Of a stretch of 64,000 nucleotides of DNA, positions 5,737-26,329 are shown piece by piece (the first letter of the stretch is position 1; every line of letters starts with the position of its first letter). Position numbers and translations under genes: made by a program. This DNA comes from Candidatus Zambryskiibacteriota bacterium (GTDB lineage Bacteria > Patescibacteriota > Minisyncoccia > Phycocordibacterales > DATDWN01), in assembly GCA_026394775.1 (NCBI GenBank), contig JAPLZY010000008.1:53367-117366 (forward strand). The letters run 5' to 3'. The notes beneath the pieces are model-generated. The model was not told the origin of the DNA, ran no database searches, and saw nothing but the letters and a program-made list of their open reading frames with translations.

Positions 5737-6426
5737 ATGATGTTTCAATCGTGGGGAGGTGTGCTTGAGACTTCCTTTCAAAGTTTGTGGTCAGGTATTC
5801 TTTTATTCATTCCAAATCTCATTGTCGCATTAGTGATCTTGGGTCTTGGTTGGGCGATCGGTGCATTGGTAGGAAAAGCTGTCACCAAATTTCTCGATGC
5901 TGTGCATTTTGATGAGGCGTTGCGAAAAACTGGTTTTGAAAATGTTGTGAAGAAAGCTGGGCTTGAGCTTCGAGCATCTCATTTTGTGGGGTGGCTTATC
6001 AAGACAGTTATTATAATTATTTTCCTTATCGCAAGCTTCGATGTGCTTGGTCTTGTGCAGGTAACACAGTTCTTGAGTCAGGTGGTGCTTGGGTATCTTC
6101 CACAGCTCATTGTTGCAGTCCTTATCCTTTTGATCGGAGTAGTAGTAGGAGATGCGATTGAGCGGATCGTGGTAGCATCTTCTCGAACCGCTGGTCTTAC
6201 TTCTTCAGCAATACTTGGAAAGGTTTCAAAGTGGGCAATTTGGATTTTTGCAATTCTCGTTGCGCTTTCTCAGATGGGTATTGCGGGTGCATTTATTCAG
6301 ACACTCTTTACTGGTTTTGTGGTAGCGGTTTCTTTGGCACTCGGACTCGCATTTGGTCTTGGAGGACAGGAGGCAGCGGCGGATGCTATTAAGAAGGTAC
6401 GAGAGGAGATTAAAGAACGACGATAG
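5737..6426 (+). CDS. integral membrane protein (hypothetical, internally repeated)
   Basis: 229 aa with 5-6 TM helices and an internally duplicated architecture. Confidence 0.5.
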   Translation: MMFQSWGGVLETSFQSLWSGILLFIPNLIVALVILGLGWAIGALVGKAVTKFLDAVHFDEALRKTGFENVVKKAGLELRASHFVGWLIKTVIIIIFLIASFDVLGLVQVTQFLSQVVLGYLPQLIVAVLILLIGVVVGDAIERIVVASSRTAGLTSSAILGKVSKWAIWIFAILVALSQMGIAGAFIQTLFTGFVVAVSLALGLAFGLGGQEAAADAIKKVREEIKERR

Positions 6427-6576: not shown

Positions 6577-7132
6577 AGCTTCATTCGGTATGAAAAAAAC
6601 ATTAGATTTAAAAAGCGGCGTTTGAGATAACAAGCTTAATTGATTGTTACCTGGACTCCGCTTTGTGCGGATTTTTTGTTTCTCGGCCTGGCTCGATATT
6701 TGACAACTTAATTCCGCCACTTACTACTGACCAATGATGGGTCTTTTCGGGTGGGTAGGCGGAGCAATACAATGTTACTAACATCGAATAGATATTAGAT
6801 AACAGAGTATGAATGTAAGAAATATAATTGTGGTTTTTAAATTTCCTAATGGGAAATTTAAGAGCATATGGTGGATGCCTAGACTCTAAAGGGCGATGAA
6901 AGACGCGGCATGGTGGCGATACGTTTCGGGGAGGTACCTAGCAACCTTTGATCCGGAAATCTCTGAATGGGGGAACCCAACAGCTTTTGCTGTTACTCTA
7001 CAAATTATGTAGAGCGCACACCCAGGGAAGTAAAACATTTCAGTACCTGGAGGAAAAGAAAACAATGTTCGTAAGAACGACATTTCGTTAGTAGCGGCGA
7101 GCGAACACGAATGAGCCCAAACCGGCACATCA

Positions 7133-7244
7133 CATTGAGCACGGGGAAAATTTTAAATTTAAAATTCTAAATTTCAAAACAAAATGCATGTGCATCCGTT
7201 TTAAAATTTGAAATTAGAAATTTGAAATTCATCCCGCTCTTAGC
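7133..7244 (+). repeat. AT-rich imperfect palindrome inserted in 23S domain I (helix 9-type IVS/expansion)
   Basis: gaaaattttaaatttaaaattctaaatttcaaaac ... gttttaaaatttgaaattagaaatttgaaattc forms a long hairpin. It is closed by ccggcacatcac/gtgatgtgccgg. Confidence 0.55.
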
Positions 7245-7466
7245 GTGATGTGCCGGGGTTGTAAGGTAACAACGTCAAATTTATTTGAGAGAAGTTAAAA
7301 AATAGTATGTTAATGGAATGCACTGGAAAGTGCGACCCTAGAGGGTAATAGTCCCGTACATGAAAATATACTATCTTCTTTGTTGTTATTCTTGAGTACC
7401 TCGAGACATGAATAGCTCGGGGGAATCTGCCGGTACTAACCGGTAAGGCTAAATACTTTTAGAGAT

Positions 7467-7505
<39 letters not shown>

Positions 7506-8922
7506 GTCCGAGAGGACGGTGAAATAGACCTGAAACCATATGCTTACAAGGAGTCGGAGCGGGCAGCAATGTCCCGTCACGGCGTGCCTATTGAAGAATG
7601 AGCCAACGAGTTGATGGATGCAGCAAGGCTAAGTCCTTTACCGGACGGAGTCGTAGGGAAACCGAGTGTGAATAGCGCGTTAAGTTGTATGCATCAGACC
7701 CGAAGCCAGAGCGAGCTTACCATGAGCAGGGTGAACTTTGTCGAAAGATGAAGGGAGGCCCGAACAGTTTAGCCGTGCAATACTATCTGATGACTTGTGG
7801 TAAGAAGTGAAAAGCTAATCGAGCCTGGTAATAGCTGGTTCTCTCCGAAATAGCTTTTGGGCTAGCGTTAGGTGATCCCTTCCGGGGTAGAGCACTGGAA
7901 GGACTCAACAGGGAGCAATCTCGTGAGTCCTATCAAACTCCGAATACGGAAGATTACAGCCTAGCAGTTAGACGGTGGGGGCTAAGCTCCATACGTCAAA
8001 AGGGAAACAGCCCTGATCTCTATTTAAGGTCCCTAAATCTATGTTAAGTACACTTAAGGTGGTGGATTTTCTTTGACACTGAGGAGGTTGGCTTAGAAGC
8101 AGCCATCCTTTAAAGATAGCGTAACAGCTCACTCAGTAAGAGAATCTGCGCCGCAAATAATCGGGGTTAAACATAGTACCGAAACTGAGGGTTTGTATTT
8201 GTTTTTACAAGTACAAGCGGTAGGAGAGTATTCGTATCTGCGCTGAAGCCAAAGGGGTGACCCATGGTGGAGCGATGCGAAGTAAGAATGTTGGCACAAG
8301 TAACCACAATGCAGGTGAAATCCCTGCACGCCGAAAGACTAAGGTTTCCTGTTCAATGTTAATCAGAGCAGGGTTAGTCGGGCCTAAGGAAATGGAGAGA
8401 TCCGCATCCGATGGACATGAGGTTAATATTCCTCAACTTTTATGTAATGCGATGGAAGGACGGAGTGCTGTATGTAGGGCTCATTATTGGATTTGAGTCA
8501 CTGTCGTGAGAATGTGTCCCAGGTAAATCCGGGCACTCACTTTAATGTGGTATTCGAGCGGTTGCGAAACCTTGCGATTCGTCAAGAGGGATTCTACAAA
8601 GCGCGCTTCCAAGAAAAGTTTCTAAGCTTAAGTACATAAGAACCGTACCGTAAACCGACACAGGTAGTCAGGTCGAGTAGACCAAGGCGAACGAGTGAGA
8701 GATCCCCAAGGAACTCGGCAAAAAAGCAGCCGTAACTTCGGAATAAGGCTTGCCCACTTTAATGTGGGCCGCAGCTAAAGTATTTCTGGCAACTGTTTAT
8801 CAAAAACACAGCTCCCTGCGAACTCGTAAGAGGATGTATAGGGGGTGACACCTGACCAATGCCAGAAGGTCAAATATGGGAGCTAAATGTCGCAAGACGC
8901 TAGGTTGACTGTATAAGCCCTG

Positions 8923-9416
<494 letters not shown>

Positions 9417-9955
9417 GCGCACGAATGGTGTAATGACTGGAAAACTGTCTCGGGGATTTGCTCGGTGAAAATACAATACCGGTGAAGATGCCGGTTACCT
9501 GCAGTTAGACGAAAAGACCCCAGGAGCTTTACTGCATCTTGATATTGAGAATATGACTTGCATGCGTAGCATAGTGGTGAGGATTTGAAGGGCACTCCCG
9601 GGTAGCCTGGATCCGTCAGTGAAATAGCCATCTTGTTTGTTATATTTTCTAACCTCGGCGGAAAAAACGACGAGAGACAGTGTCTGGTGGGCAGTTTTAG
9701 TGGGGCGCTATCCTCCTAAAAAGTAACGGAGGAGTTTATTAAGGTCAGCTAGCCGTGAATGGAAACCATGGCGATAGTGTAATGGCACAAGCTGGCTTAA
9801 CTGTGAGACGTACATGTCAAACAGATGCGAAAGCAGAACATAGTGAACCGACGGTCCGTGTTAGAGGCGGCCGGAGATTATCGGATAAAAGCTACCCTGG
9901 GGATAACAGGCTGGTTGTGCCTAAGCGTCCAAAGCGACGGCACAGTTCGGCACCT

Positions 9956-10801
9956 TAACTCTCAATGTAAAAATTGGGAAACATCGGGGTGCCTATGGGA
10001 GTAATTCCATACAAAAAATATTTGGCTTATAACGGTGGACTCCATATACAAGCGTTGTATCAGAAATGGTATAATTAAAACAATATGGACAATACCGCGG
10101 GAAGTTTAACTCAATTACAGAAGTCATTTGTTATTGGAACTCTTTTGGGAGACGGATATATTCGTCAAGCAAAAGGGAGAAAAAACGCATTTCTTGAAGT
10201 AAATCATTCAATTACTCAAAAAGAGTATGTTGAATGGAAATATAGTATCTTGAAAAATTTGACACGAAGCGGTCCAAAATCTAGAAATGGAAATGGAACA
10301 CGCATCGCGTATAGATTTTTTACTAGACAGCATCCAGAATTTACTAAAATTATGGATTTGTTCTATAAAGATAGAAAGAAATGTATTCCTAATCTAAAAT
10401 TAGATCCTTTAATGGTGGCAGTATGGTTCATGGACGATGGAAGTAGATGTAATAAAGAAAATGTATACCTTAATACTCAACAATTTGCTAAAGAAGATCA
10501 GTATAAACTACTTGAATCTTTGAAAGAGATTGGTTTAGAGGGAACTCTGAACAAAGATAAAGAGTATTATCGCATTAGAATTAAAACATCAAGTATTCCT
10601 AAGTTGTTTGGAATAATAAAAGAATTTATTATTCCTTCCATGAGATATAAAATTGGGTTATGACCCTGTAGAGACTTGACCTGAAAGATGGTCAGAGTGT
10701 GAAGGAAAACTTCATGCTAACACGCCGAACTCCCTTTCATTTAGAGAAAGGGATGAAGATATAGTCCGATCCTTCTGGTAACAGAAGAAAAATACGACAC
10801 G
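9956..10801 (+). mobile_element. group I intron 2 in 23S (domain V, near E. coli position ~2500) carrying an intact LAGLIDADG HEG
   Basis: Exon GGCACCT|...|CGATGTCGGCTCATC. R-like gaccctgtagagacttgacc and S-like gatgaagatatagtcc elements are present. Confidence 0.75.
10085..10663 (+). CDS. LAGLIDADG homing endonuclease (double-motif, monomeric type)
   Basis: Motif 1 VIGTLLGDGYI and motif 2 VAVWFMDDGS, 192 aa, located inside the 23S intron. Confidence 0.85.
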   Translation: MDNTAGSLTQLQKSFVIGTLLGDGYIRQAKGRKNAFLEVNHSITQKEYVEWKYSILKNLTRSGPKSRNGNGTRIAYRFFTRQHPEFTKIMDLFYKDRKKCIPNLKLDPLMVAVWFMDDGSRCNKENVYLNTQQFAKEDQYKLLESLKEIGLEGTLNKDKEYYRIRIKTSSIPKLFGIIKEFIIPSMRYKIGL

Positions 10802-12610: not shown

Positions 12611-12725
12611 TAGTTCTGGTGATTCGTCGCAAAGGTCACACCTGTTCTCATTCCGAACACAGTAGTTAAGCTTTGTTGAGGCGATGATACTCCGCAAGGG
12701 GGAAAGTAGCTAGTCGCCAGAACTA
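12611..12725 (+). rRNA. rrf: 5S rRNA
   Basis: agttctggtg...cacctgttctcattccgaacacag...ccagaacta. Helix I pairing and the conserved CCGAACAC loop are present. Confidence 0.85.
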
Positions 12726-18130: not shown

Positions 18131-18171
18131 TTATTAAAATCTTCTCTCAGTAAAAGTCCTTATAAATATTT

Positions 18172-18192
18172 CCCCAAGGCCGGGCCTTGGGG
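18172..18192. repeat. REP-like palindrome upstream of the RAYT-like gene
   Basis: ccccaagg-ccggg-ccttgggg, a perfect 8-bp stem. Confidence 0.6.
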
Positions 18193-18223
18193 AAAGTACC
18201 TGCTTGGTTTATCATATTAGAAT

Positions 18224-18886
18224 ATGACGACCAGAAAAGAAAATTTTGCTGAAGGAGAGTATTATCATATCTATAATCGAGGTAATAGTAAGCAAATTAT
18301 TTTTCTTGATGATCAAGATAGGGATAGGTTTGTGAAGTTACTTTATCTTTGTAACTCAGGAAAAAATATAAATTTTAGGGATGACATTACTGAAAGGGGA
18401 ATTGACGCTTTTGACTTTGACAGAGGAGAGCAAATCGTTTCTATCGGAGCTTGGGTTTTAATGCCTAATCATTTCCATATCTACATCACCCCTAGGCGAG
18501 GCCTAGGGGTAGAAGATGATAATTTTCTTGCGAATTTTATTCATAAGCTTTGCACGAGTTATTCTATGTATTTTAATAGAAAGTATAAGAGAACAGGGAA
18601 GTTATTTGAGGGAGTTTTTAAATCGACTCATGTTGAAAGTGATGAACAGGCAAAGTATAACTGTTCTTATATTCATCTTAATCCTGTTAAATTGATTGAT
18701 TCGCTTTGGAGAGAAAATGGAATACAGGATATTAAAAAAGCACTAGAATTTTTAGATACTTATAAGTGGAGCAGTTATCTGGATTATAAAGGGACAAAGA
18801 GGTCTGAAAATAAGATTATTTTCCCAGAGGATTTTCCTGATTATTTTTCTGACAAAAAAGTTTTTGAGGAAGAGATTTTTGAATAG
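18224..18886 (+). CDS. HUH Y1 tyrosine transposase, IS200/IS605-like (REP-associated RAYT family)
   Basis: GEYYHIYNRGNSKQIIF...LMPNHFHIYITP (HuH motif) ... YIHLNPVKL (catalytic Tyr region), 220 aa. Confidence 0.7.
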   Translation: MTTRKENFAEGEYYHIYNRGNSKQIIFLDDQDRDRFVKLLYLCNSGKNINFRDDITERGIDAFDFDRGEQIVSIGAWVLMPNHFHIYITPRRGLGVEDDNFLANFIHKLCTSYSMYFNRKYKRTGKLFEGVFKSTHVESDEQAKYNCSYIHLNPVKLIDSLWRENGIQDIKKALEFLDTYKWSSYLDYKGTKRSENKIIFPEDFPDYFSDKKVFEEEIFE

Positions 18887-18915
18887 TTAAATTATGGTAA
18901 TAGGTAAAAGGTTCC

Positions 18916-18934
18916 ACCAAGGGGTACCCTTGGG
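18916..18934. repeat. REP-like palindrome downstream of the RAYT-like gene
   Basis: ccaaggg-gtac-ccttgg(gg) shares a CCAAGG/CCTTGG core with the upstream element. Confidence 0.6.
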
Positions 18935-18990
18935 GAAAAATAATACGGCGACATTGCATTTCCCCTCAAAATCCCTATAATAAGCCGCAT

Positions 18991-20366: not shown

Positions 20367-21275
20367 ATGACTATCGTTAAATACAGAATTATATTTTTTA
20401 TCCTTTCACTTCTTCTCATCGCAGGGTCTTTTGGGGTGATTGCAAAGTATGGTCTTAACTATGGTATTGATTTCAAAGGGGGATCAATTCTTGGGGTGAC
20501 CTATGTTGATGTAGAAGGTTCAGTAACCCCGACACTCACTGAAGTGAAAACTATTCTTGCTGACACAGGTCTTTCAAATACACTTGTATCTCCACGAGGG
20601 GACAAAGGATATGTGATCAAAATGAGAGAGCTTTCTTCTGAAGAAAAAAATGCAACTCTTCGAGCACTTACTTTAGCGGGTAGTAATCCTGTGACAGTAG
20701 AAAAGTTTAATGCTATTGGGCCAGTGGTGGGAGATGAGCTTCGTTCAAAAGCTTATGTTGCGATCGTTGTAGTGCTCTTCTGTATTATCCTCTTTATTCT
20801 TTTTGCATTCCGAAAAGTAAAGAATCCATTAAACTACGGTATTGCAACTATTGTCGCACTTGCTCATGATGTGATTATTCCAACAGGTATTTATGTACTC
20901 TGGTCACAACATACTGGAGCAGAGATTGACTTGCTGTTCGTATCAGCGCTCCTCGCTATCCTTGGATACTCTGTGCATGACACTATCGTGGTGTTTGACC
21001 GAGTGCGAGAAAATGCCCTAAAGAATGCTGGAGTAAAAAATGGTCTTTCATTTGAAGAGGTGGTAGGTAAATCGGTAACAGAAACAATGGCACGATCTAT
21101 CAACACGTCACTGACAACAGCGATCACACTTCTTGCATTGTATTTTGTTGGAGGTTCATCAACACAAAACTTCGCATTTATTCTCCTTATGGGAATTATT
21201 GTTGGAACATACTCATCTATCTTTATTGCGAGTCCACTTCTTGTGACTCTTGAAGGTTGGAGAAAGAAAAAATAG
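20367..21275 (+). CDS. secF: protein translocase subunit SecF
   Basis: YGLNYGIDFKGGSILGV... with a C-terminal TM bundle, immediately downstream of secD. Confidence 0.9.
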   Translation: MTIVKYRIIFFILSLLLIAGSFGVIAKYGLNYGIDFKGGSILGVTYVDVEGSVTPTLTEVKTILADTGLSNTLVSPRGDKGYVIKMRELSSEEKNATLRALTLAGSNPVTVEKFNAIGPVVGDELRSKAYVAIVVVLFCIILFILFAFRKVKNPLNYGIATIVALAHDVIIPTGIYVLWSQHTGAEIDLLFVSALLAILGYSVHDTIVVFDRVRENALKNAGVKNGLSFEEVVGKSVTETMARSINTSLTTAITLLALYFVGGSSTQNFAFILLMGIIVGTYSSIFIASPLLVTLEGWRKKK

Positions 21276-21302
21276 ACGTCCATATTTGGCCAATCTCATC
21301 GT

Positions 21303-21365
21303 CTAAAATATAAAAAATATTCTCCACCGTACAACGAGTACGTCTGCAAATATTTTTTATATTTT
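21303..21365. repeat. nested perfect palindrome (17-nt arms)
   Basis: aaaatataaaaaatatt ... aatattttttatatttt, with an inner palindrome cgtacaacgagtacg. Confidence 0.6.
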
Positions 21366-21378
21366 ATACGCGACCTTG
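21361..21378. repeat. left 18-bp inverted repeat of a GC-rich single-gene cassette
   Basis: attttatacgcgaccttg is the exact reverse complement of 21982-21999. Confidence 0.7.
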
Positions 21379-21416
21379 GCTCAAATCTGAACGTCTTAGA
21401 ATTCATATTTCAATAA

Positions 21417-21438
21417 AAACCGGGCAACCGGTTTTTTG
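21417..21438 (+). terminator. terminator of secDF
   Basis: aaaaccgg-gcaa-ccggtttttt. Confidence 0.7.
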
Positions 21439-21450
21439 GTAAATGAAATC

Positions 21451-21480
21451 CCCGCCGGTTGAGCCGGCGGGGAGGTTAGG
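21451..21480 (-). terminator. GC hairpin downstream of the minus-strand cassette gene
   Basis: ccccgccggttgagccggcgggg. Confidence 0.4.
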
Positions 21481-21484
21481 AAAC

Positions 21485-21880
21485 TTATTGCTTCGGTTCG
21501 CGTCTGCGAACTCCAAGCAAAACCAGTTGATCGGGAACTTCTTGTTTAGAGTTCATAAACGGTTTAACGACAAACCGTAGTGCGTCGATGAAATCGTCGA
21601 CACTGACTCCGAACATCCAATTCCCCCAGGCGATCTTGCCTTGTTCGATATGAATCTGGTCGATTGAATCCGACCCGCTCCATTTGAAGGCGATGATTCG
21701 CTCCAGGGCGAACAGTTGCTCTGGGGTAAGACGGTGGATGAGGAATTCTTCCGTCATCCTTGCCGCATTCCAGCTCATTGTCGCGAGGTTTGCGCTGTCT
21801 GTAAGACCGCACATCTGGCGCTCAAGACGAGCAAGCTCTTGTTCAGAGAACTTGCCGATAGGGAGGGTTTGATTTGTCAT
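21485..21880 (-). CDS. hypothetical protein (131 aa) encoded in a GC-rich (~52%) island
   Basis: Clean ORF whose GC content is ~12 points above its surroundings. It has a perfect own promoter and no recognisable family. Confidence 0.5.
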   Translation of the reverse strand: MTNQTLPIGKFSEQELARLERQMCGLTDSANLATMSWNAARMTEEFLIHRLTPEQLFALERIIAFKWSGSDSIDQIHIEQGKIAWGNWMFGVSVDDFIDALRFVVKPFMNSKQEVPDQLVLLGVRRREPKQ

Positions 21881-21893
21881 ATGTTCTGTTTAT

Positions 21894-21922
21894 ACTATAC
21901 ACCCTATTAGTATACTTGTCAA
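21894..21922 (-). promoter_or_regulatory. promoter TTGACA-17-TATAGT on the minus strand driving the cassette gene
   Basis: Reverse complement reads cTTGACAagtatactaatagggtgTATAGTataaacagaacATG. Confidence 0.6.
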
Positions 21923-21981
21923 GTAGTTTTGAACCAAAAAACAAGGCTTTTAAATATAAAGAATCTCGGAGAATTTTTGGA

Positions 21982-21999
21982 CAAGGTCGCGTATAAAAT
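21982..21999. repeat. right 18-bp inverted repeat of the cassette
   Basis: caaggtcgcgtataaaat. Confidence 0.7.
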
Positions 22000-22117
22000 C
22001 GGCAAAAGGAACGGAGGCGTAGTTAGCGCTACGGTGAGTACCTTTTGCCGATTTTAGGCGATGAAATTGTGCCAAAAAGGCCCGAGCTGTAGCCATAAAA
22101 ACCACTTTCTACCACGC

Positions 22118-22145
22118 TTGACTTAGTTGGGAATATGACTATACT
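22118..22145 (+). promoter_or_regulatory. 16S rRNA promoter TTGACT-16-TATACT
   Basis: About 300 nt upstream of the 16S 5' end. Confidence 0.5.
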
Positions 22146-22393
22146 GTATGGGTGCTTAAAAAAGCACGAGTTCGTTGACATTTCAATATTGAATTAAGAA
22201 GACAGGTGGTATTTTTGCTTAGGCAGAGGTGCCACCATTGAAGAGAATGCAAGTTCTCAAATTTCTTTTAATTTCCGGATAGTAGTAACTTTCAAACTAC
22301 GATCTATACAATTCATCAATTTACAAGCAGCGCTTCCTGAGCTGTCAAAGAACAAACCAGGAATAAAAAATAAGATATCAGTTAGCAATAATT

Positions 22394-22420: not shown

Positions 22421-22744
22421 ATAAAATTTGCTTTTGCAATTTTTACCAAGAGTTTGATCCTAGCTCAGGATGAACGCTGGCGGCGTGGATAAGGCATGCA
22501 AGTCGAGCGCCTCGCAAGAGGAGCGGCGAACGAGGTAGTAACACGTTGGTACACACCCTTTAGTCAGGAATAACTAGTCGAAAGATTAGCTAATACTTGA
22601 TAGTCTCTTCGGAGTAAAGATTTATCGCTAAAGGAGTGGCCTGCGGAGTATCAGCTAGTTGGTAAGGTAATGGCTTACCAAGGCTATGACGCTTAGAGGA
22701 CCTGAGAGGGTGACCCTCACCGATGGTACTGAGACACGGACCAT

Positions 22745-22775
<31 letters not shown>

Positions 22776-22904
22776 CCGCAATGGGCGAAAGCCTGACGGA
22801 GCGACGCCGCGTGATTGATGAAGTCCCTCTGGGATGTAAAGATCTTTTATGAGGGAGAAAGTTTATTGATAGTACCTCATGAATAAGGGGTTGCTAAACT
22901 CGTG

Positions 22905-23838
22905 AGAGGCAGATTAAGCATCTGCAATCCTAATTTAGTAACAGCATTAAAAATTCGTATTTACCGTGCGCGACTTTGAACCGTAAGGTTCTTAGCAAAT
23001 TCGGCTTATATGCTGGGACTCTGTACAGAGCTGCGTTCAACACATGTTGAATTCTCTACAGACAATCAGCAGGGAAGTCGGATATAATAAAGGTAATGTC
23101 TTTATCGCAAATTCAACAATATATTCTCACAGGGCTTTTGCTTGGAGATGGTTGTCTTGAACGAAAGTCCAAGAACAGCCGACTCCAGGTCAAACAGTCA
23201 GTAGGTAAGAAAGAATATGTATTCTGGTTATATAATTATTTTTCTGAATTCGTAAAAACTCCTCCCCAACAAAGGAAGGATACAAATCAGTGGTATTTTG
23301 CCACTCGATCTTTATCTCAATTTGAAGAATGGAATGCGGTGTTTTACAAAAACAGAAAGAAAATTGTTCCAGAAAATATATCAGAGTTATTGGCTTCGCC
23401 GATAACACTTGCCGTATGGATGATGGAACTCTCGATTATCGAGAGAAATCACATTATTCATTTACCTATAGTACTGACTCGTTTAGTGTAGAAGAGGTTT
23501 CTCTTCTACAGGATGCTTTGTTAGAAAACTTTGGGATAGAATCATCGATTCAAACTCCAAAGTCGCGAGGAAAAAAATATACAAAATTGTATATTGGAAA
23601 AAATGGGCGAGAGCGATTTATAAAAATCATTCAGCCTCACATCCTCGATTGTTTTCCGTATAAAGTGCCTCCAATTATATCTTGACCCCTCAGAGACTGA
23701 TCCTGCGGACATATTAATGTATGTCTTGAGGGTGAGATAGAGAGATTTTTTTAAATCTTCTATCAGACGCCGAACCCCATTTTTTATAGAATGGGTGATG
23801 ATATAGTCCAATCCTCGTAGTGATATGAGAACAACTGG
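22905..23838 (+). mobile_element. group I intron in the 16S 530-loop region (near E. coli 516-518) with a decayed HEG
   Basis: Exon ...gctaaactcgtg|...|ccagcagcagcggtaatac. R-like ccctcagagactgatcc and S-like ggtgatgatatagtcc are present. Confidence 0.75.
23096..23685 (+). pseudogene. frameshifted double-motif LAGLIDADG homing endonuclease
   Basis: Motif 1 LTGLLLGDGCL lies in one frame and motif 2 ...LAVWMM/MDDGTLDYREK continues in the -1 frame. The break is at about 23415-23430, within the direct repeat tggatgatgga. Confidence 0.65.
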
Positions 23839-24471
23839 CCAGCAGCAGCGGTAATACGAGTGCCCCAAGCGTTATCCGGAATTATTGGGCGTAAAGGGTG
23901 TGTAGGTGGTAGTGTTAGTCTTTTGTAAAATCTCCAGGCTTAACCTGGAAACCGCGAAAGAAACGGCACAACTAGAGGGTGCGAGGGATGTATGGAACTC
24001 ATGGAGTAGGGGTGAAATCCGTTGATATCATGGGGAACACCAAAAGCGAAGGCAATACATTGGCGCATTCCTGACACTGAAACACGAAAGCGTGGGTAGC
24101 GAATGGGATTAGATACCCCAGTAGTCCACGCCCTAAACGATCTTCTCTAGCTTTTCGGAGTATCGACCCTCTGAGAGGCGAAGCTAACGCGTTAAGAGAA
24201 GCGCCTGGGTAGTACGACCGCAAGGTTAAAACTCAAAGGAATAGACGGGGACTTGCACAAGCAGAGGATTATGTGGTTTAATTCGACGATAAACGAAGAA
24301 TCTTACCAAGGTTTGAAACCTAGCTGAATATATTTGGAAACAGATATAGTCTCACAAGGACAGTTAGGCAGGTGATGCATGGCCGTCGTCAGTTCGTGAT
24401 TTGAATTGTTCCCTTAAGTGGGGTAACGAACGCAACCCTCGTTGTCTGTTACAAGTGTCAGGCGAGACTGC

Positions 24472-24612
24472 TCAGCTCTTTGCGTAGAAAAGCAAAGAGG
24501 ACATAAAACAGAAACGAGATGAAACGATAACTATAAATAATAAGTAGAAAGTAAAAGAAGGAAGTGATTCGGGACGTCCCGTTTCTGTTAGCTTTTGTAA
24601 ATAAAGAGCTGA
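24472..24612 (+). other. ~130-nt expansion of 16S helix 40
   Basis: gactgctcagctcttt...aaagagctgag-aggaaggtg replaces the E. coli CCAGTGATAAACTGG hairpin. Confidence 0.5.
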
Positions 24613-24837
24613 GAGGAAGGTGAGGATGACGCCAGGTCAGCATGTCCCTCTGATACCTTGGGCTACACACATAATACAATGGTCACTACAACGCGTCGCG
24701 ACGGGGAAACCCTGAGCCAATCGTAATAAAAGTGGCCCCAGTTCGGATTGAGGGCTGAAACTCGACCTCATGAAGTTGGATTTGCTAGTAATCGCGGGTC
24801 AGACATACCGCGGTGAATACGTTCTCAAGTCTTGTAC

Positions 24838-25257
24838 TCAAAATTAAAAGCGCCGGGCAGGTAATAAATCTAGTTGGTTAAAATCCAACCTTGAAAAAGT
24901 AGCGAAAGGGTAATCTGCTGACCGTGAGGTTGGCAGGTGAAGGATCCTAGTAGCAAAAAGCAGCCTATTTATAAAAAGAGAGGTACGACCCATCAGGTGA
25001 GTCATGGGGAAGTATCAACAAAATTAAGTTTTTGGTCTCAAGTAGGATGCAAGGAACAGAGTTATTACTGACCCCTGGGAGATCTCATGGTGTAAAAGAC
25101 AATGAATAAGTACCTTGAGAAGTCAGCTGCGTCGTAGTAGTTTCGATCTAGTATCGGAATGAAGGACAAAATCGTTAGTTTTTGAAACTAACGAACTCGC
25201 GTAGTGCGGGAAATCCGCACGCTACGTGGGAACGCGAAATATTGTTAAATTATCGCC
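24838..25257 (+). mobile_element. ~420-nt intron-like insertion in 16S adjacent to the decoding-centre sequence (TTGTAC|...|CCGCCCGTCA), ORF-less, class uncertain
   Basis: The exons align to E. coli 1385-1405 with the insert between them. R/S-like gacccctgggagatc and cgatctagtatcgg are only loosely canonical. Confidence 0.55.
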
Positions 25258-26177: not shown

Positions 26178-26250
26178 GCGCGTGTAGCTCAGCTGGTAGA
26201 GCAATCGACTGATACTCGGTAGGTCCCAAGTTCGACCCTTGGCACGCGCA
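26178..26250 (+). tRNA. tRNA-Ile (anticodon GAT)
   Basis: Manual fold gives a 7-bp acceptor gcgcgtg/cacgcgc, D stem gctc/gagc, anticodon stem atcga/tcggt, loop ctGATac, T stem ccaag/cttgg, T loop ttcgacc and discriminator A. No CCA is encoded. Confidence 0.8.
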
Positions 26251-26329
26251 CAAAGTCTGGAATTATTATTTTTTTAAAAAATCTCAAAAAGTCTTGTGAA
26301 ATGAAGTCAGTCACTTTTACTCGGTAGGC

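Follow-up and report, generated by a model that had tools for sequence, protein, structure and literature searches.

Two copies of a dispersed hairpin repeat flank a variable orphan gene between secF and the 16S rRNA gene of a Candidatus Zambryskiibacteriota bacterium

Results

The spacer between secF and the 16S rRNA gene of a Candidatus Zambryskiibacteriota bacterium (assembly GCA_026394775.1, contig JAPLZY010000008.1, positions 53,367 to 117,366; this 64,000-nucleotide stretch is referred to here as the window) carries an orphan gene encoding a 131-amino-acid protein (ORF131; ORF, open reading frame) between the two arms of a perfect 18-bp inverted repeat. The left arm reads ATTTTATACGCGACCTTG and the right arm is its exact reverse complement, and a search for the 18-mer that tolerates up to three mismatches returns these two sites and no others in the window, where shuffled sequence gives an expectation of 0.02. 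A sequence-only reading of the window had taken the arms for the ends of a 640-bp mobile cassette, a miniature inverted-repeat transposable element (MITE) with a passenger gene, and the sequence features that it listed are all present (Table 1). ORF131 is the single minus-strand ORF between the arms, its TTGACA-17-TATAGT promoter has 11 of 12 positions matching, a terminator-like GC hairpin lies downstream, and the palindrome beside the left arm has perfect 17-nt arms at 21303-21319 and 21349-21365 that extend to 33 nt at 82% complementarity. The flanking genes are likewise those named, secF on the left and the 16S gene, starting near 22450, on the right. The GC contrast is real (50.3% for the ORF, 40.3% for the window), the earlier figure of about 52% for the ORF having been slightly high. 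The interpretation placed on these features is only partly supported. It is highly likely, in our assessment, that two independent copies of a non-autonomous hairpin repeat, oppositely oriented, flank a separate and variable orphan-gene module.

Table 1. Coordinates of the features between secF and the 16S rRNA promoter, numbered from the first nucleotide of the window.
Feature	Position	Strand	Basis or remark
secF	20367..21275	+	stop TAG 21273-21275 overlaps left element end
Left copy of the ~122-nt element	21275..21396	-	covariance model, minimum-free-energy (MFE) fold; sense strand reads CAAGGTCGCGTATAAAAT
Palindrome, corresponding to central stem P2 and terminal stem-loop P3 of the left element	21303..21365	.	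alignment, fold
Left 18-bp arm, invariant 5' core of the left element	21361..21378	-	invariant alignment columns
Bidirectional terminator-like hairpin AAAAACCGGGCAACCGGTTTTTT, conserved left border of the slot	21415..21437	.	
Variable slot, secF terminator to 16S -35 box	21438..22117	.	
GC-rich terminator-like hairpin after the orphan gene	21449..21473	-	kept in L087/L088 behind a different gene
Orphan gene ORF131, 131 aa	21485..21880	-	
Promoter-like site TTGACA-17-TATAGT of the orphan gene	21894..21922	-	promoter scan; kept in L001
Right copy of the ~122-nt element	21965..22086	+	outer-stem subtype CTCGGAGAATTTTTGG / CCAAAAAGGCCCGAG
Right 18-bp arm, invariant 5' core of the right element	21982..21999	+	invariant alignment columns
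16S rRNA promoter-like site TTGACT-16-TATACT, conserved right border of the slot	22118..22145	+	

Inverted similarity between the two sides of ORF131 continues beyond the 18 nt, running for 79 nt (21300-21378 against 21982-22060) and, once the outer stems are included, for about 122 nt per arm; in the alignment of both arms the central stems differ in sequence while their pairing is kept. Each arm is thus a complete hairpin element, and the 18-bp inverted repeat exists because two oppositely oriented copies of one such element flank the orphan gene. A covariance model that we built from 73 copies finds exactly two copies in the 64 kb, one per arm, scoring 135 bits at 21266-21402 on the minus strand for the left copy (53 bits on the opposite strand) and 102 bits at 21958-22095 on the plus strand for the right copy (26 bits on the opposite strand). 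The two belong to different subtypes, and the MFE hairpin of the left copy reaches -55.4 kcal/mol. The element is a rod-like hairpin of about 122 nt (median length 124 nt) with no ORF inside. Read from the outside inwards, it consists of an outer stem, P1, followed by a near-invariant asymmetric core (5' CAAGGTCGCGTA, 3' GACGATGAGATTG) that is closed by TAAAAT/ATTTTA, then a central stem, P2, of about 10-12 bp, a GA/GA internal loop and a terminal stem-loop, P3, of 5-7 bp. P1 and the core together form an imperfect terminal inverted repeat whose outermost pairs covary rather than being fixed, and the sequence of P2 is free among copies, yet always paired.

We evaluated this structure over 47 pairs on a model-guided alignment of 77 copies, a test in whose reach the variable stems lie and the invariant core does not. 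Paired cells amounted to 91%, with both-sided changes in 32 of the 47 pairs (445 cells); the observed pairing and covariation values were reached by 0 of 500 shuffles, and all pairing measures collapsed when partners were slid by 1-3 columns. Compensatory evolution is also visible at a single site, as the right copy and its orthologue in L001 (loci examined outside the window are numbered with the prefix L) differ by two double compensatory changes in the central stem.

The two strands of the element are not equivalent. Folded as RNA, the sense strand, defined in Table 1 by its reading in the left copy, is the more stable in 84 of 84 copies (mean -53.7 versus -41.0 kcal/mol), and the variable stems contain 206 G.U versus 36 A.C oppositions on the alignment and 207 versus 8 on the MFE folds. 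For a double-stranded DNA palindrome, drift under symmetric mutation predicts equal numbers of the two, and the excess of G.U therefore means that the hairpin matters as a single strand, be it RNA or DNA, and on that strand; the hairpin is under selection on one strand only. Mutation bias was rejected as the source of this asymmetry by reasoning alone, given that C-to-T change on the coding or the lagging-template strand predicts the opposite sign. A kink-turn or box C/D reading of the GAUGA core was set aside on inspection by eye, the opposite strand being without the partner GA, and TIGR arrays were dismissed as relatives because they are tandem arrays, whereas copies of the element are single and dispersed. 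In Rfam 15 the element matches nothing at the gathering score, and at E<=10 it returns only chance-level matches resembling miRNA precursors.

The 18-bp repeat, which the sequence-only reading had treated as the end of one unit, proved to be dispersed across the candidate phyla radiation (CPR) as the core of the ~122-nt element. Public CPR/Patescibacteria genomes and metagenomes yielded about 160 occurrences of the element, frequently with several copies in one genome. A genome scan for the 18-mer, with one genome per species, returned 85 stretches; in all loci examined and the window together there are 91 matches, of which 74 have the 3' core nearby. By their record labels nearly all of the genome matches lie in metagenome-assembled genomes of CPR/Patescibacteria (Zambryskibacteria, Paceibacterota/Parcubacteria, Minisyncoccia and 'uncultured Candidatus Saccharibacteria'). 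Metagenomes contributed 120 matches in 117 stretches; 90 of these matches are compact elements, having the 3' core no more than 75 nt away. Viral contigs gave 0 matches to the 18-mer. Searching 86 loci with the covariance model recovered about 85 sense copies, some of them lacking an exact 18-mer. Matches outside the CPR (Agaribacter, Phaeobacter, Tannerella, a human-gut contig and others) were rejected as family members, as they share no flanks, and their number falls within the chance range of about 17 estimated for an 18-mer in 596 Gb. In the gammaproteobacterium Agaribacter flavus (L006, L009, L016, L045) the 18-mer occurs four times, each time between identical flanks (TTTCTGTCC, 18-mer, TTATTCTTTC) as part of another repeat that belongs to this species; with no other similarity to the CPR element, we take this to be a probable coincidence of sequence. 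At L046 ~6050-6257 (minus strand; the same sequence as L152 1417-1700) a copy of the element contains two nested inserts of about 85 nt (GTGAGAAGT...GTGTACTG.TCCTGTAAGGA), one in the terminal loop and one in the 3' core, which look like a second small-insertion family that targets the hairpin element.

Placement of the copies relative to genes follows a rule. Of 84 copies, 55 have at their 3' edge the stop codon of an antisense ORF that is at least 70 codons long, whereas a co-directional gene ends at the 5' edge in only 2 (p=2e-14). The stop codons used are TAA (32), TAG (22) and TGA (1), and since the element read in gene orientation starts with TA and a purine, the stop codon is kept. The left copy in the window obeys the rule exactly; the right copy breaks it because it is located between two divergent promoters, that of ORF131 and that of the 16S gene. 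The neighbours are housekeeping genes, among them those for EF-Tu, ribosomal proteins, NusA, FtsZ, FtsW and ribonucleotide reductase. In L083, five copies in the same orientation separate rplM, rplQ, rpoA, rpsD, rpsK and rpsM, and in other genomes pairs of elements flank tuf, gap, ftsZ and rplO. The left copy is flanked by TA at 21273-21274, within the secF TAG, and at 21397-21398. Across the family, TA is frequent at the end away from the stop codon as well. TA at both ends is suggestive of insertion into TA with duplication; as TA is self-complementary, such a duplication looks the same as an extension of the stem, and the spacers of relatives differ, so that none offers an exact empty site. 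Orthologous 489-aa genes in two genomes each end on an element (L013 6286-6421 and L014 4837-4973), and the two elements have different outer-stem subtypes, which means that this stop codon was either hit by insertion more than once or bears an element that has changed extensively where it stands.

This placement recalls the attC sites of integrons, in which a gene and its site form a cassette. In both cases the site comes behind a stop codon and folds on the strand complementary to the gene that precedes it. Both also combine a conserved, asymmetric core containing unpaired bases with a distal stem that varies, and arrays of copies in one orientation, as in L083, are a further parallel. However, the would-be cassettes are core genes in conserved order (rpsM-rpsK-rpsD-rpoA-rplQ, tuf, ftsZ), no transposase or integrase occurs among 136 neighbouring proteins, the consensus has none of the GTTRRRY/RYYYAAC core sites, and insertion polymorphism concerns the element alone. 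We accordingly hold membership in the integrons to be excluded, and attC-like sites of an integron-like system to be an exceedingly improbable explanation.

A different possibility is that the element is first of all a structured RNA of use to the host, its spread being secondary, acting in cis within the operon mRNA, where it would stabilise the 3' end, offer a site to RNase III or slow the termination of translation just past the stop codon, or else made separately as an antisense RNA. Copies do stand directly after stop codons inside co-directional operons of highly expressed genes, the orthologous right copies of the window and L001 evolve by compensation, and the analogous REP, ERIC and Correia repeats alter the fate of mRNA (PMC10969869). 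The pairing is preserved, however, on the strand that is absent from host mRNA, and close relatives lack the element at the same site. Nor is a conserved upstream promoter for a sense transcript evident: a scan of the window copies found none, and TTCAGA-17-TATAAA, possible as a sense promoter in one subtype, was discarded as it is not conserved in the other. Together with the outcome of the Rfam search, these points make a host-useful RNA a rather improbable account of the family.

We located relatives at the secF site by secF similarity. L093, whose secF is 92% identical to that of the window, has the left element, its contig ending inside it, and L091 (91%) retains a 16-nt remnant, TAGACGTCCACATTTGGAC, joined to the secF terminator. 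Lying directly against the terminator, the remnant (L091 3112-3140, GACGTCCACATTTGGAC) records a loss that was imprecise rather than a clean excision. No left element is present in L092 (91%), L087 and L088 (90%), L089 (90%), L090 (85%) or L001 (74%, at the nucleotide level). In L001 the terminator stands directly behind the secF stop codon, and the ~122-nt segment with the left arm and the palindrome is gone while the right arm is kept. The right copy is present in L001 and absent from L087-L092. These distributions differ, and the two window copies arrived independently. Elsewhere in the family, non-orthologous loci share variable regions with full or 92-96% identity, both within a genome (L033, L035) and between genomes. 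None of the ~210 matches to the 18-mer in genomes and metagenomes is a longer, gene-carrying version that could be an autonomous parent; all are compact, partial-copy or chance matches. The family is thus dispersed and insertion-polymorphic, and it carries no gene. It shares with MITEs their small size of about 50-500 bp, absence of coding capacity, terminal inverted repeats, dispersed copies and insertion polymorphism, and differs from them in that no autonomous parent with the same ends is among those matches.

It is against these observations that a 640-bp cassette, whether a MITE or a composite with a passenger, bounded by the 18-bp repeats and moving as a unit, has to be judged. In its favour are a mismatch-free inverted repeat that is not a chance occurrence, the orphan status and foreign composition of the enclosed gene, and the bracketing of that gene by the only two copies of the element in 64 kb. 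In L001, however, the gene occupies the corresponding position, complete with promoter, terminators and right copy, while the left copy is missing. The sequence-only reading had itself named such a finding as one that would refute it, and we take the cassette to be refuted; in a composite transposon, ends and passenger would be present or absent together. In L091 the left-end remnant lies beside a different slot gene, and the L093 contig, carrying the left copy, stops within the element, before the slot. Each arm is an element complete in itself, of a different subtype and with its own history of presence and absence, and pairs of the same element flank ordinary core genes elsewhere. We therefore consider the cassette very unlikely. 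The orphan gene occupies a variable slot and has a copy of the element to its left and another to its right, and the repeats bound no mobile cassette: the repeat-bounded unit does not exist as such, and the gene is a separate variable module.

How the element spreads is a question on which a gene 2.4 kb upstream of the left copy, the nearest in the window, bears. The gene at 18224-18886 (plus strand) encodes a RAYT-like HUH-Y1 transposase (NF047646, E=3.5e-11, 43 bits; weak match to Pfam Y1_Tnp), and in a strict REPIN system an inverted REP-like doublet would be replicated by such an enzyme acting on folded single-stranded DNA. REPINs consist of two invariant inverted blocks of ~16-19 nt, about 70 nt apart, with a variable spacer that keeps its hairpin, and are extragenic (PMC3116915), a description with which the architecture of the element agrees point for point. 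Selection on one strand is what a single-strand-specific HUH enzyme leads one to expect, and the RAYT-like family is large and conserved in the CPR. Homologues also occur in SMAG_U8111 (on the same contig as L059) and in RIFCSPLOWO2_02_FULL_39_26, both element-bearing, so that the gene is found in 3 of 3 element-bearing genomes examined, in a clade where the family may be near-universal.

Of the known mechanisms, a REPIN-RAYT-like system is the leading candidate, on mixed evidence. Several observations speak against the strict form of this model, which we judge unlikely. At 43 and 51 bits, the RAYT-like proteins fall short of the NCBIfam cut-off of 80 bits, and besides the distance of the nearest copy in the window, the covariance model finds no element within 6 kb of the RAYT-like gene in L095, L097, L099, L100 or L101. 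A tblastn search with the protein over all element loci returned only the window and two syntenic relatives. Classical REPs are lineage-specific, whereas the core of the element is invariant across many divergent genomes, and if genes are co-oriented with replication the folded strand would be the leading-strand template, the opposite of the IS200/IS605 model. The RAYT-like genes, moreover, are flanked by GC-rich palindromes of their own, CCCCWAGG...CCTWGGGG, which resemble cognate REPs more than the element does. In the window these palindromes lie at 18169-18195, 18489-18509 (inside the gene) and 18912-18941; 5 of the 6 CCCCWAGG sites in the window cluster at the gene, and similar palindromes flank its homologues in L087, L097 and L099.

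The orphan gene has a history of its own. The sole relative of ORF131 in searches of 5.8 billion clustered proteins and of 1.84 billion cluster representatives is P0002, with 89% identity; the proteins covered number about 15 billion. P0002 is encoded in L001 in the same order, with secF followed by the ORF on the opposite strand and then by the 16S gene. ORF131 has no match in Pfam, NCBIfam or PADLOC, a marginal one in PHROGs (E=0.019 over 22 residues), only E>1 in a sequence search of the PDB, and none in a tblastn search of phages; an AlphaFold2 model from the two-sequence alignment has a mean predicted local distance difference test score (pLDDT) of 40 and is unusable. Between the window and L001, the ratio of nonsynonymous to synonymous differences per site (pN/pS) is 0.35, with a synonymous excess at p=0.0065 and no indels or stop codons, which supports a real protein-coding gene; a caveat is a leader of only ~6-13 nt with no visible Shine-Dalgarno sequence. 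The composition of ORF131 departs from that of its neighbour, as expected under the earlier reading, with GC at third codon positions (GC3) of 57% versus 30% for secF, overall GC of 50.3% versus 39.7%, and a sliding-window GC peak of 0.535. Its divergence departs likewise: ORF131 is 92% identical to the L001 gene at the nucleotide level with pS of 0.16, while secF is 74% identical with pS of 0.62, and the N-terminal half is 97.5% identical, with the stretch up to the 16S promoter near-identical. Divergence and deviant GC3 together point to a block of about 0.7 kb, made up of ORF131, its promoter and the right element, that was recently transferred or exchanged by recombination.

In relatives the position of ORF131, between the secF terminator and the 16S promoter, is a slot with changing contents. 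Its left border, the hairpin AAAAACCGGGCAACCGGTTTTTT, is conserved in L001, L087-L089, L091 and L092. In the window and L001 the occupant is ORF131, on the minus strand. L087 and L088 have in its place an unrelated minus-strand ORF of 101 aa, which has a promoter of its own and is followed by the two terminators seen behind ORF131. In L089, L091 and L092 the slot holds plus-strand ORFs of 155-158 aa that form one family and are equipped with promoter, Shine-Dalgarno sequence and terminator, and in L090 it is ~100 nt long and has no gene. The slot proteins have no family match and no similarity to ORF131 or among different occupant types. The relatives closest to the window in secF lack ORF131, and the more distant L001 has it. 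What stands of the claim of a self-contained, horizontally acquired gene is therefore the gene itself, with its own promoter and terminator, foreign composition, orphan status and variable position; the repeats as the ends of the unit do not. ORF131 is probably a horizontally acquired, variable single-gene module.

Some further features of the region concern the ribosomal RNA genes. A 16S leader hairpin at ~22203-22238 differs in sequence among the window, L001, L087 and L090 with its pairing kept (GGTGGTA...TGCCACC versus GATGGTT...ACCATC) between flanking blocks that are identical in all, and is probably a processing or antitermination stem. The 16S gene is split by an insertion of ~710 nt (22976-23689; Rfam matches at 22450-22976 and 23689-24889), insertions in CPR 16S genes being a known phenomenon. 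The insertion holds the overlapping ORFs 23096-23491 and 23329-23685 (LLGDGCL...), which by sequence look like a frameshifted LAGLIDADG homing endonuclease. About 190 nt past the 16S end, at 25082-25167 (plus strand), lies a group-II-D1D4-1 intron domain (Rfam, 36.7 bits against a cut-off of 35), and a tRNA-Ile gene follows behind the 16S gene at 26178-26251. The rRNA genes are unlinked, on one strand and in an unusual order, with 23S at 6848-10013, 5S 2.6 kb further on at 12615-12722, then secDF and other genes, and 16S at 22450-24889; the 23S match is ~240 nt longer than the Rfam model.

Discussion

Taken as a whole, the data favour a picture in which an orphan-gene module is, probably by chance, flanked by two copies of a new MITE/REPIN-like repeat. 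We propose that the element is mobilised in trans, in the manner of MITEs and REPINs, and that it is probably recognised as a folded single strand. The left copy would have inserted at the secF stop codon in a recent sub-lineage, and the right copy would travel with the orphan-gene block. Host selection, we suggest, would retain those insertions that give the mRNA the weaker version of the hairpin and leave the stop codon intact. The orphan gene would be a module that drives its own expression and sits at a hot spot of gene replacement, with the secF terminator and the 16S promoter as borders; it was probably exchanged by recombination in these conserved flanks and not via the repeats.

A number of points weigh against this proposal. 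No mobilising enzyme was identified for the element. No more than 700 bp separates the only two copies in the 64 kb, a spacing that is unlikely under random placement and that we attribute to scarce intergenic space as a putative cause; and the right copy, being part of a block shared at 92-97% with L001, may have a role in moving that block. TA at both ends, in its strict pattern, is seen in only 23 of 66 copies. The covariation counts include inherited subfamily differences, and as such measure consistency, their cells not being independent events. Finally, the folded strand is almost always the one absent from host mRNA, an orientation that the proposed model leaves unexplained.

Rather than a passive MITE, the element could be the visible part of an undescribed CPR-wide system whose hairpin folds on the strand opposite the host mRNA, an idea that we regard as quite unlikely. 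The hairpin could then be single-stranded DNA that a recombinase or HUH enzyme recognises in a strand-specific manner, or else an antisense RNA in its own right, and either targeting or retention would place it at the stop codons of genes with high expression. Such a system would explain jointly the asymmetric core that stays invariant across divergent genomes, the selection on one strand and the 55-to-2 orientation bias.

Returning to the MITE/REPIN-like repeat that we favour, the family belongs with the palindromic repeats of bacteria of the MITE/REPIN type (Correia, ERIC, REPIN, RPE), with properties that are unusual among them. With the REPIN/RAYT systems of Pseudomonas and E. coli it shares inverted invariant blocks, a variable hairpin spacer with compensatory changes, a length of ~100-120 nt, extragenic location, the lack of a gene of its own, several copies per genome and a single-copy RAYT-like HUH-Y1 gene. 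Unlike REPINs, it lies away from the RAYT-like gene, has a core that is invariant across genomes and TA-flanked ends, sits precisely on stop codons in near-absolute orientation, and occurs in few copies in the sampled DNA, not in hundreds. Correia repeats of Neisseria and the ERIC/IRU repeats of Enterobacteria and Vibrio, which are bacterial MITEs, resemble it as palindromic sequences of 100-150 bp with long hairpins in transcribed intergenic regions and at gene 3' ends, and ERIC is likewise conserved across genera. Correia and ERIC families show TA at their insertion sites. The element differs from both in its unrelated sequence, in a central stem that is hypervariable yet paired, and in the keeping of pairing on the non-mRNA strand; the effects of Correia and ERIC on mRNA depend on orientation (PMC10969869).

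The likeness to integron attC sites extends to the position directly after the stop codon, the antisense folded strand, the conserved core with unpaired bases and the variable distal part, and ends at the missing R/L core motifs and integrase, the core-operon neighbours, and an element that comes and goes alone. Rickettsia palindromic elements (RPE) are similar in that they, too, are palindromic, spread through genomes that are small and reduced, and are tolerated where genes end; they often insert in frame within coding sequence, whereas the element stays just outside, on the stop codon. ORF131, for its part, is like the 'morons' of phages and the small genomic islets found at hot spots: a single gene with its own promoter and terminator and deviant GC, variably present at one position between conserved flanks. 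Unlike morons, it is without prophage context or phage match, its flanks being the secF terminator and an rRNA promoter.

A false lead, the repeat-bounded cassette, is thus replaced by two objects, a repeat family and a replacement hot spot. We found no description of this repeat in the CPR in the literature, of which our coverage was incomplete, so that an earlier description is possible. CPR genomes are tiny and tightly packed and are usually thought to be very poor in repetitive DNA. The repeat family offers a clear consensus, a well-supported structure, a working covariance model and an unusual antisense placement at stop codons, often those of highly expressed genes. Such elements break assemblies and make it harder to annotate where genes end, and any action of theirs on mRNA or DNA would make them a lineage-wide feature of regulation or recombination. 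The hot spot beside the 16S promoter, where different orphan genes stand in near-identical backgrounds, is a natural system for the study of gene gain in the CPR.

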